Part shown: piece by piece, positions 895-2,313 of the stretch
Layout: each line of letters begins with the position of its first letter
Numbering within the stretch: the stretch's first letter is position 1
Source: Escherichia coli
GTDB taxonomy: Bacteria > Pseudomonadota > Gammaproteobacteria > Enterobacterales > Enterobacteriaceae
Length of the DNA: 64,000 nucleotides
Reading direction: 5' to 3' (one strand)
Assembly (NCBI RefSeq): GCF_016026235.1
Contig: NZ_CP065613.1
Translations under genes and position numbers: made by a program
Notes under the pieces: model-generated
Told to the model about the DNA's origin: nothing
The model's input: only the letters and a program-made list of their open reading frames with translations
Databases searched by the model: none

Positions 895-2091
895 TCAGAC
901 AACTTCCTCACCGTAACGCATAGTGCTGGTACGGTTGCGCCCATCTTTCTTCGAGCGATACAGACACGTATCGGCTTCGACCATCAATTTATTAAAGTCA
1001 TCGGTCAGCGTTCGGTACGATGCGCGACCACTACCGACGCCAATACTTACCGTGAGATAAAGCGTTTTTTGTTGCCAGGTGAATGGTTGCAGTTCAACGC
1101 CTTTACGGATTTTTTCCGCCATTAGCAGACCATCGACAGGATTCACTGACGGCACTGCAACAGCAAATTCTTCGCCGCCCATGCGCGCCACCAGCCCCTT
1201 ATCACCGACAATCTTCTGAATATGCCGGGCAAACACGCTTAACACTTTATCGCCACATTCATGTCCATAGTTATCGTTAATACTTTTGAAATAGTCGATA
1301 TCAAGCAGCATGACAGTCAGATGTTGTGTCTGTTTAAGCGATGGACTTTTCAGCGCCTCATAAAGACCGGACCGTGAGTAAACCTGAGTCAGAAAATCAA
1401 AGTCGGCTCGCAGCGCAACTTGCTTCATTAGCGAATTGATCGCTGCCACGCTAAAAGAAACCATAATTGGGCATATCGCCATCGTGGCAATACCGAGACG
1501 TGCGGAGAACATTTCCGGAATGGAGAACGGCGAACCGACCGAGATATCAATCACCGAATTAGCCACCAGTACGATTTCCACCGCACCGGTGACAAAGGTC
1601 AACAGACATGTTACCTGCGGCGTATAGCGCACTGCACACCAGATTAATGCAGGCAGCGGGAACGCCAGACTCCCCGCTCCGCCAATGACTACCGAGGCAA
1701 TAACCGACACAATAAGCGCGATGGCGGGCATCATCTGTTCTGCTTTAAAGCGCGGCAGCACTCCAGGAATAGCCAACGTCAGCATACAAGGCACGATCAA
1801 CACGCCCGTTGAGAATTGCTCACTGAACCAGTCCGCAAGCAAAGGCCAGAAATCCAGACTATCAATACTGACCGAACCAATCGCTCCGACAATAGCGCAT
1901 AATAATGCGGCAATCAGACAGTAATTAAATAGCCGTAAGGCACTTACTGGCTCATACTTATTTTTCCCCAGACGCTTATCCCGCACGACCAGTAAGGCGA
2001 CGGTAACAATAAACATCATATTGGAGAAATTGATAGCCAGTGAAACCAGTCCCCATTCGGTGGTTATGACATCATAAACCAGCATCGCCAC
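895..2091 (-). CDS. dgcF: Diguanylate cyclase DgcF (YneF): membrane segments plus C-terminal GGDEF domain with GGEEF motif; ORF as drawn starts at GTG just downstream of an in-frame TGA
   Basis: 398-aa ORF; C-terminal ...ARMGGEEFAVAV... and RYGEE motifs typical of GGDEF cyclases; hydrophobic N-terminal half. Confidence 0.75.
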   Translation of the reverse strand: MAMLVYDVITTEWGLVSLAINFSNMMFIVTVALLVVRDKRLGKNKYEPVSALRLFNYCLIAALLCAIVGAIGSVSIDSLDFWPLLADWFSEQFSTGVLIVPCMLTLAIPGVLPRFKAEQMMPAIALIVSVIASVVIGGAGSLAFPLPALIWCAVRYTPQVTCLLTFVTGAVEIVLVANSVIDISVGSPFSIPEMFSARLGIATMAICPIMVSFSVAAINSLMKQVALRADFDFLTQVYSRSGLYEALKSPSLKQTQHLTVMLLDIDYFKSINDNYGHECGDKVLSVFARHIQKIVGDKGLVARMGGEEFAVAVPSVNPVDGLLMAEKIRKGVELQPFTWQQKTLYLTVSIGVGSGRASYRTLTDDFNKLMVEADTCLYRSKKDGRNRTSTMRYGEEVV

Positions 2092-2127
2092 ATAACTGAT
2101 CGCATAGTAATGCAGTCGATTAAGTCA

Positions 2128-2313
2128 GACATAGCGGGCAAACACCCCCGCCATTACGCCATTCAGCGGCCAGAAAAGAGAAAGTTCGTGAACCAGCCGT
2201 AACTCTGCACCAATAAAATAGAACAGCGTGGTTAGCGCAAAAATAGCGATGCTATTACGTAGCAGATGACCTTCCTGGAACAAACGGAAAGTTGAAATGG
2301 GGTGTACATGCAT
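2128..2313 (-). other. 62-codon ORF in the same frame as dgcF, separated from it only by TGA at 2125-2127; probable 5' part of an ancestral longer dgcF
   Basis: The ORF-track 62-aa ORF (2125-2313) and the 398-aa ORF share a frame; (2127-2091) is a multiple of 3 and the intervening codons are sense. Confidence 0.5.

Follow-up and report, generated by a model that had tools for sequence, protein, structure and literature searches.

A premature TGA at codon 63 interrupts the membrane domain of the diguanylate cyclase gene dgcF in an Escherichia coli lineage and has probably produced a young pseudogene

A single G-to-A change has converted the Trp63 codon of the diguanylate cyclase gene dgcF (yneF) into a TGA stop in the Escherichia coli DNA analysed here, a stretch of 64,000 nucleotides from contig NZ_CP065613.1 of assembly GCF_016026235.1 (hereafter the window). 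We consider it probable that the resulting allele, W63*, is a recently formed pseudogene or, at most, a severe hypomorph, and it is the loss of function that we infer. As a lesion W63* is already known: public annotation marks an identical allele, the dgcF copy of strain FDAARGOS_943, as a pseudogene (PGAP label, 'internal stop').

On the minus strand of the window the genes sad, glsB, yneG, dgcF and uxaB match annotated RefSeq genomes colinearly at 97-100%, a comparison that identifies the DNA as E. coli of a non-K-12 type. The flanking genes of dgcF are yneG and uxaB; it shares their strand and lies downstream of sad-glsB-yneG, with identical neighbours in FDAARGOS_943, O157:H7, O6 and K-12-like genomes. 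Both this context and near-identity to DGCF_ECO57 (472 aa) bear out the naming of the gene as DgcF in the first-pass annotation; the O157 allele, whose protein is named 'Probable diguanylate cyclase DgcF', differs from the window allele at few sites. The two sigma-70-like promoter matches upstream of the start codon read ATGAGA-18-GATAAT, with an upstream TG, and TTGCCA-18-GATAAT. The coordinates of all features are collected in Table 1.

Translation of positions 895-2340 on the minus strand reads MHVHP...FARYV*LNRLHYYAISYVAMLVYD... and continues to ...GEEVV*. From the ATG to the end of the gene there are 1419 nt (2313-895+1), or 473 codons with the internal and the terminal stop both counted. 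Uninterrupted, the frame would hold 472 codons; in the window it is broken by the TGA at codon 63, and the list of open reading frames accordingly contains two minus-strand entries in one shared frame, 2125..2313 (62 aa, ATG) and 895..2091 (398 aa, GTG). This is as had been proposed from the letters alone, namely that a 62-codon frame and a 398-codon GGDEF frame flank a TGA and derive from an ancestral protein of about 472 aa; the intact genes of other E. coli encode exactly 472 aa. That the two frames are separated only by the TGA is correct in so far as no other stop intervenes, but 11 sense codons (2092-2124, LNRLHYYAISY) precede the GTG. The change is a C to T at position 2125 of the plus strand (G to A on the minus strand), and the base 3' of the stop is a C, giving the context UGA-C.

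Table 1. Features of the dgcF locus, in window coordinates.
Feature	Position	Strand	Basis or comment
Premature stop TGA, dgcF codon 63	2125..2127	-	TGG (Trp) in intact alleles
N-terminal fragment ORF, codons 1-62	2128..2313	-	ATG at 2313; helix 1, W48-P49-x-N51 loop, helix 2
Remainder of the dgcF frame, codons 64-472 and natural stop (895-897)	895..2124	-	No further stops or frameshifts
Membrane domain, residues ~17-300, ten predicted helices, divergent MASE1-like	1414..2265	-	AlphaFold2, family alignment
GGDEF domain, residues 303-461	931..1407	-	Pfam PF00990, E 1.7e-40
Candidate in-frame restart codons GTG75 (2089-2091) and ATG77 (2083-2085)	2083..2091	-	Shine-Dalgarno pairing absent
Two out-of-frame ATGs (2103-2105 and 2091-2093), +1 frame	2091..2105	-	Open 13-codon ORF, MRSVMWRCWFMMS*
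Two overlapping sigma-70-like promoter matches upstream of the ATG at 2313	2316..2374	-	Consensus match only
498-bp stretch absent from K-12-type alleles, present in the window	1881..2378	-	Promoter region and codons 1-144

The ancestral state of codon 63 is clear from comparison with other genomes. Among four aligned loci, O157:H7 strain MB41-1 and an O6:K2:H1 strain carry TGG (Trp63) within an annotated, intact gene of 1,419 nt, and the window and FDAARGOS_943 carry TGA; TGG63 is found in the intact 472-aa alleles of four further strains as well. In order to count alleles, complete-genome records were searched for exact matches to an 81-nt query centred on codon 63. The context with TGG matched in 3,942 of 4,194 records, and that with TGA in a single record, FDAARGOS_943, out of 5,426 complete genomes. 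Intact 472-aa DgcF proteins from other E. coli begin with a sequence that matches the 62-codon piece exactly or almost exactly. In E. fergusonii, Citrobacter, Enterobacter and Lelliottia the orthologues, 472-482 aa long, can be aligned from residue 1 onward and have a strongly conserved N-terminus; for both reasons the piece cannot be a chance reading frame. The suggestion that a nonsense mutation interrupts the gene thus stands, with TGG(Trp63)->TGA as the change and TGG among the ancestral codons that had been proposed. The opposite finding, orthologues that all begin downstream of the stop, is contradicted by the upstream start and conserved N-terminus shared by four other genera.

A one-base difference from thousands of genomes may raise the suspicion of a sequencing or assembly error in a gene that is truly intact. 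The difference is, however, a substitution and no homopolymer indel, and the identical base is present in FDAARGOS_943 and in the independent runs ERR926423, SRR5330898, ERR3970836 and ERR9438756. Run ERR926423 matches the window at 100% over 5,313 bp, TGA included; SRR5330898 differs from it at 2 positions, and FDAARGOS_943 at 3 in 5,420 bp. A search for the exact 62-aa product in a collection of 15 billion proteins gave 38 listed contigs and 73 blocks of public assemblies. Given that TGA63 recurs in independent assemblies and projects we rejected error as an explanation, and consider it extremely improbable.

The stop is not confined to a single genetic background. In ERR3970836 and ERR9438756 TGA63 occurs on backgrounds that are 53 and 59 sites away from the window, respectively: across 1,601 bp the former departs from the intact allele of strain 05-3629 at the TGA base alone, and the latter equals strain 203740 apart from the TGA base and one other. 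The G>A change at codon 63 is therefore found on at least three haplotypes. These alignments are most simply read as three or more G>A transitions that arose independently, and W63* is probably a recurrent lesion. A less favoured, though admissible, alternative is that a short gene-conversion tract spread TGA63 between backgrounds; in the case of ERR3970836 such a tract would have to be shorter than about 300 bp.

The stop and two synonymous substitutions are all that separates the window dgcF from the nearest intact allele, that of isolate GPT24-02. The substitution A82V (window position 2069) was considered as a sign of decay following inactivation and rejected, V82 being present in the intact GPT24-02 allele also. 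With a downstream frame free of decay and an intact GGEEF motif, the W63* mutation is recent. The undecayed state of the frame fits a recent origin and would equally fit continued use.

What remains encoded downstream of the stop includes the entire output domain. The GGDEF match to PF00990 scores 138.9 bits against a cut-off of 23.8, TIGR00254 matches with E 4.7e-38, and the active-site motif, GGEEF, is intact at window positions 1165-1179. The RxxD inhibitory site is absent from the DgcF GGDEF domain, where GDKG stands in its place. Both PMC4287979 and the motif table of PMC3484386 are consistent with this reading of the domain, and in a search of the PDB with the predicted DgcF fold the GGDEF domain matched PleD, DgcZ and WspR.

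The N-terminal domain is less readily classified. GGDEF is the sole domain of the protein recognised by Pfam and NCBIfam, neither of which has a name for the N-terminal region; residues 1-301 give no match to MASE1 (PF05231) even at E <= 10, and the PDB fold search returned no solved structure for the membrane domain. An exhaustive HMMER search with residues 1-300 as query found 404 related cluster representatives, and of 83 aligned full-length family members 52 match MASE1, with a best E of 3.2e-11. We regard the DgcF membrane domain as divergent MASE1-like, a membership that is transitive only, by way of distant homologues in these alignments. The AlphaFold2 model built on the 83-sequence alignment reached a pLDDT of 91.7 and a pTM of 0.85; with 15 close orthologues the pLDDT of the membrane domain stayed below 50. 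The former model predicts a polytopic, all-helical membrane domain ahead of the output domain, with which the hydropathy profile agrees. Its helices span residues 17-37, 49-60, 67-84, 89-114, 122-147, 155-179, 191-210, 213-229, 232-251 and 265-304, the last of them continuing into the GGDEF domain.

The model places residue 63 in the short turn that connects helix 2 (49-60) to helix 3 (67-84). The position itself is variable, with W, Y, F or R at codon 63 in orthologues and R, Q, Y, H or W across the wider family. By contrast, seven positions within the first 62 aa are near-invariant in the family (G35, R39, W48, P49, N51, G56 and R60), among them the WPxN loop that precedes helix 2 and the arginine, R60, that ends it. 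The stop thus separates the membrane domain from its most conserved motif. The first-pass annotation had raised the loss of the sensor domain as one possibility, which goes too far: residues 1-62, with helix 1, the WPxN loop and helix 2, are split off, but most of the ten-helix domain, about 300 aa in length, remains encoded.

Ribosomes that start at the ATG would be expected to halt at codon 63 and to release a two-helix peptide, such that the full-length MASE1-GGDEF diguanylate cyclase would no longer be produced in normal amounts. Native expression of yneF is very weak and RpoS-dependent (PMC4287979), which leaves little room for residual product. The most likely effect of W63* is therefore loss, or strong reduction, of a cyclase that was already weakly expressed. 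A C-rich, G-poor stretch downstream of the stop, the cue for Rho-dependent polarity, was not found.

There are two processes by which an active cyclase may still be made, the first being translational restart beyond the stop. Ribosomes might reinitiate at GTG75 or ATG77, or at a later start such as TTG158, and produce a truncated, active cyclase freed of sensory control. Reinitiation past nonsense codons is classical in bacteria (the lacI and T4 rIIB restarts). The two nearest in-frame candidates lie just 33 and 39 nt past the TGA, and gene callers applied to the Logan assemblies begin the downstream frame at ATG77, giving a product of 396 aa. Catalysis would be no obstacle, for truncated DgcF is competent: over-expression of the 315-aa form of K-12 increases c-di-GMP (PMC11757272). 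For S. flexneri the recorded DgcF also has 315 aa, and deletion of that gene has phenotypes. In Shigella, moreover, the nonsense-mutated genes dgcE, dgcQ and dgcN, with stops upstream of the GGDEF domain, still give c-di-GMP and several protein species (PMC11327459).

The local sequence argues otherwise. Start codons are present near the stop, yet none has the ribosome-binding site that a functional split gene would carry: anti-Shine-Dalgarno pairing at GTG75/ATG77 is +0.3 kcal/mol, as opposed to -3.0 for the native start, and no in-frame start before codon 250 does better than -3.9. The two out-of-frame ATGs precede the in-frame starts and would compete for reinitiating ribosomes. The N-terminus of a restarted protein would fall midway along helix 3 (67-84), and the best-conserved motif of the domain would be missing from it, making its membrane insertion and topology doubtful, and the native promoter is very weak in any case. 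Restart at the GTG, as offered in the first-pass annotation, is hence possible in principle but disfavoured by the absence of pairing, by the earlier ATGs and by the location inside helix 3. Overall we judge restart a rather unlikely account of the allele.

The second process is readthrough, which the first-pass annotation did not list among its alternatives. Of the stop codons of E. coli, UGA leaks most, and here it is followed by a C at the +4 position. Decoding by near-cognate Trp-tRNA, at a rate between tenths of a percent and a few percent, would leave a strong hypomorph; as the ancestral codon 63 is Trp, readthrough by this tRNA would restore the residue and regenerate exactly the wild-type protein, and the variability of position 63 makes it probable that any other inserted residue would be tolerated. 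In E. coli UGA readthrough reflects competition between Trp-tRNATrp and RF2, and in a K-12 reporter it rose from about 2% at 37 C to 4% at 25 C (PMC10570021). Full-length product has been seen from the nonsense-mutated dgcQ and dgcN of Shigella (PMC11327459). Against these points, a few percent of very weak expression amounts to very little protein. The RF2 variant of K-12 is unusually weak, and natural isolates probably show less UGA leakage. Nor is there a stimulatory RNA structure 3' of the stop, where the minimum free energy is -16.3 kcal/mol compared with a mean of -14.1 for shuffled sequences (z = -0.79); an Rfam search of the stop region returned zero matches. Readthrough of UGA63 probably occurs, but its functional relevance is doubtful, and as an explanation for what W63* does we hold it to be unlikely.

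Two stronger versions of the same idea deserve mention. UGA is also the selenocysteine codon, and the Shigella study floats this use, speculatively, for other dgc genes (PMC11327459). TGG in essentially all other genomes, W/Y/F/R in orthologues and the placement of residue 63 in a variable loop speak against a selenocysteine or other programmed site; the idea was rejected on account of TGG elsewhere and the absence of a SECIS-like hairpin 3' of the UGA, and its probability is negligible. It is also conceivable, if very unlikely, that W63*(UGA-C) acts as a 'dimmer', delivering wild-type DgcF at about 0.1-4% of the normal level and selected to turn down c-di-GMP input. If so, yield would rise at low temperature and with rising cAMP and tRNA-Trp levels, and the repeated appearance of TGA at Trp and Arg codons 63, 66 and 87, on different backgrounds, would reflect selection for reduction rather than abolition.

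These further codons come from two rare nonsense alleles close to codon 63, R66* (CGA->TGA) and W87* (TGG->TGA), in each of which the remaining frame is intact. Exact 81-mers for them occur in none of the 5,426 complete genomes, as against the one genome for W63*. Widespread adaptive loss by way of these three alleles is unsupported by such counts (1, 0 and 0); they are sporadic, low-frequency lesions, made visible by enormous population sampling. A different lesion is common. Coverage counts show that approximately 1,227 of the 5,426 complete genomes, or about 23%, lack the 5' part of dgcF; K-12 belongs to this group. Richter et al. 2014 (PMC4287979) describe the K-12 deletion and report that yneF is not expressed in W3110. 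With about 23% of genomes without the promoter and first 144 codons, and with other nonsense alleles in circulation, dgcF is a dispensable signalling gene.

Comparison with known systems places W63* among these lesions and yet apart from each. Like the K-12 deletion (PMC4287979) it damages the N-terminal membrane domain of the same gene and spares the GGDEF domain. The K-12 allele, however, lacks 498 bp and is common, whereas W63* retains the promoter and all codons, differs by one base and is rare. The Shigella flexneri genes dgcE, dgcQ, dgcN and dgcM (PMC11327459) offer a second parallel, with nonsense codons before an intact GGDEF domain, in-frame starts near the stop and annotation as pseudogenes, even though some make c-di-GMP. 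They are different genes, in which residual activity was shown by over-expression; in dgcF W63* the restart codons have no ribosome-binding site and fall inside a transmembrane helix. For DgcF itself, synthesis of c-di-GMP has been shown only with other alleles, expressed from plasmids (PMC11327459, PMC11757272). With MASE1-GGDEF cyclases (PF05231 plus PF00990) DgcF shares the multi-helix membrane domain, an early WPxN-type motif, the long stalk helix and the GGDEF domain, but it falls below any Pfam MASE1 score. The closest counterparts are the 'internal stop' pseudogenes of PGAP, of which the FDAARGOS_943 allele is exactly the same case; the one twist relative to ordinary nonsense pseudogenes is a UGA at a former Trp codon, such that natural readthrough restores the original residue.

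W63* is, then, an ordinary, rare and recent point mutation that probably abolishes function, a standard nonsense pseudogene. In this lineage dgcF is best treated as a pseudogene or severe hypomorph, which has little import beyond annotation. One of the roughly dozen diguanylate cyclases of E. coli is probably missing from the c-di-GMP network of the lineage; DgcF has been linked in CFT073 to biofilm formation and adherence and in Shigella to acid sensitivity and invasion. The allele provides a further example of how small lesions vary the sets of GGDEF/EAL genes among E. coli lineages, and it is a convenient natural allele with which to ask if nonsense-interrupted dgc genes keep activity, as has been claimed for Shigella.

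The substitution that interrupts dgcF in the window (TGG to TGA at codon 63, W63*) is also present on two further dgcF haplotypes, from loci L007 and L008 (locus positions 3187-3189), which diverge from the window by approximately 1%. One of these haplotypes is, TGA apart, exactly an intact RefSeq allele; the other matches an intact RefSeq allele save for the TGA and one more base. On both, W63* is probably a recurrent mutation. Two other rare single-base nonsense alleles, W87* and R66*, fall in this same part of dgcF and leave the frame otherwise intact, and each was found in none of the 5,426 complete RefSeq E. 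coli genomes.

A comparison between the window and L002, a locus of the K-12 type, reveals that K-12-type genomes are missing exactly a stretch of 498 bp (window 1881-2378), in which lie codons 1-144 of dgcF as well as its promoter region. The 5' part of dgcF is absent from approximately 23% of complete E. coli genomes. The DgcF that the protein collection lists for Shigella flexneri likewise has the 315-aa form, although it has been termed 'intact' in the literature.

Chimeric predicted proteins were noted among the search matches P0037, P0038 and P0151. In predicted proteins of 514 and 460 aa the C-terminal domain of HipA is joined to the membrane domain of DgcF (97-98% identical), and in a predicted protein of 656 aa DgcF residues 83-300 are placed at positions 267-484. 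These chimeras suggest further rearranged or insertion-disrupted dgcF alleles. Searches of the complete genomes returned five matches to the dgcF region in plasmid-labelled records and, in some genomes, up to three copies of the region. A 76-aa N-terminal fragment of DgcF (P0009, NYS36025.1), deposited under Streptococcus danieliae and encoded on a contig of 416 bp, is almost certainly E. coli contamination of that assembly.

For window positions 1-25000 the best match among complete RefSeq genomes does not exceed 99.2%; the 5.4 kb around dgcF is 99.945% identical to FDAARGOS_943, a genome with the same W63* allele. The region may be mosaic, or its source lineage may be missing from the complete genomes. 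Elsewhere in the window two RNA families were matched (see table).

Nonsense alleles of dgcF, promoter-like matches and RNA matches
Feature	Location	Strand	Remarks
W87* (TGG to TGA)	L012 1759-1761		rare single-base nonsense allele
R66* (CGA to TGA)	L014-L016 1696-1698		rare single-base nonsense allele
Two overlapping promoter-like matches	window 2316-2374	-	upstream of dgcF
STnc560, Hfq-binding sRNA	window 19468-19681	-	Rfam, 282 bits, above gathering score
IS009	window 31081-31279	-	Rfam, 221 bits, above gathering score

In the proximal of the promoter-like matches upstream of dgcF, only 3 nt lie between the end of the -10 element and the ATG at 2313. If this promoter is used, the dgcF transcript would start at or within the annotated start codon.
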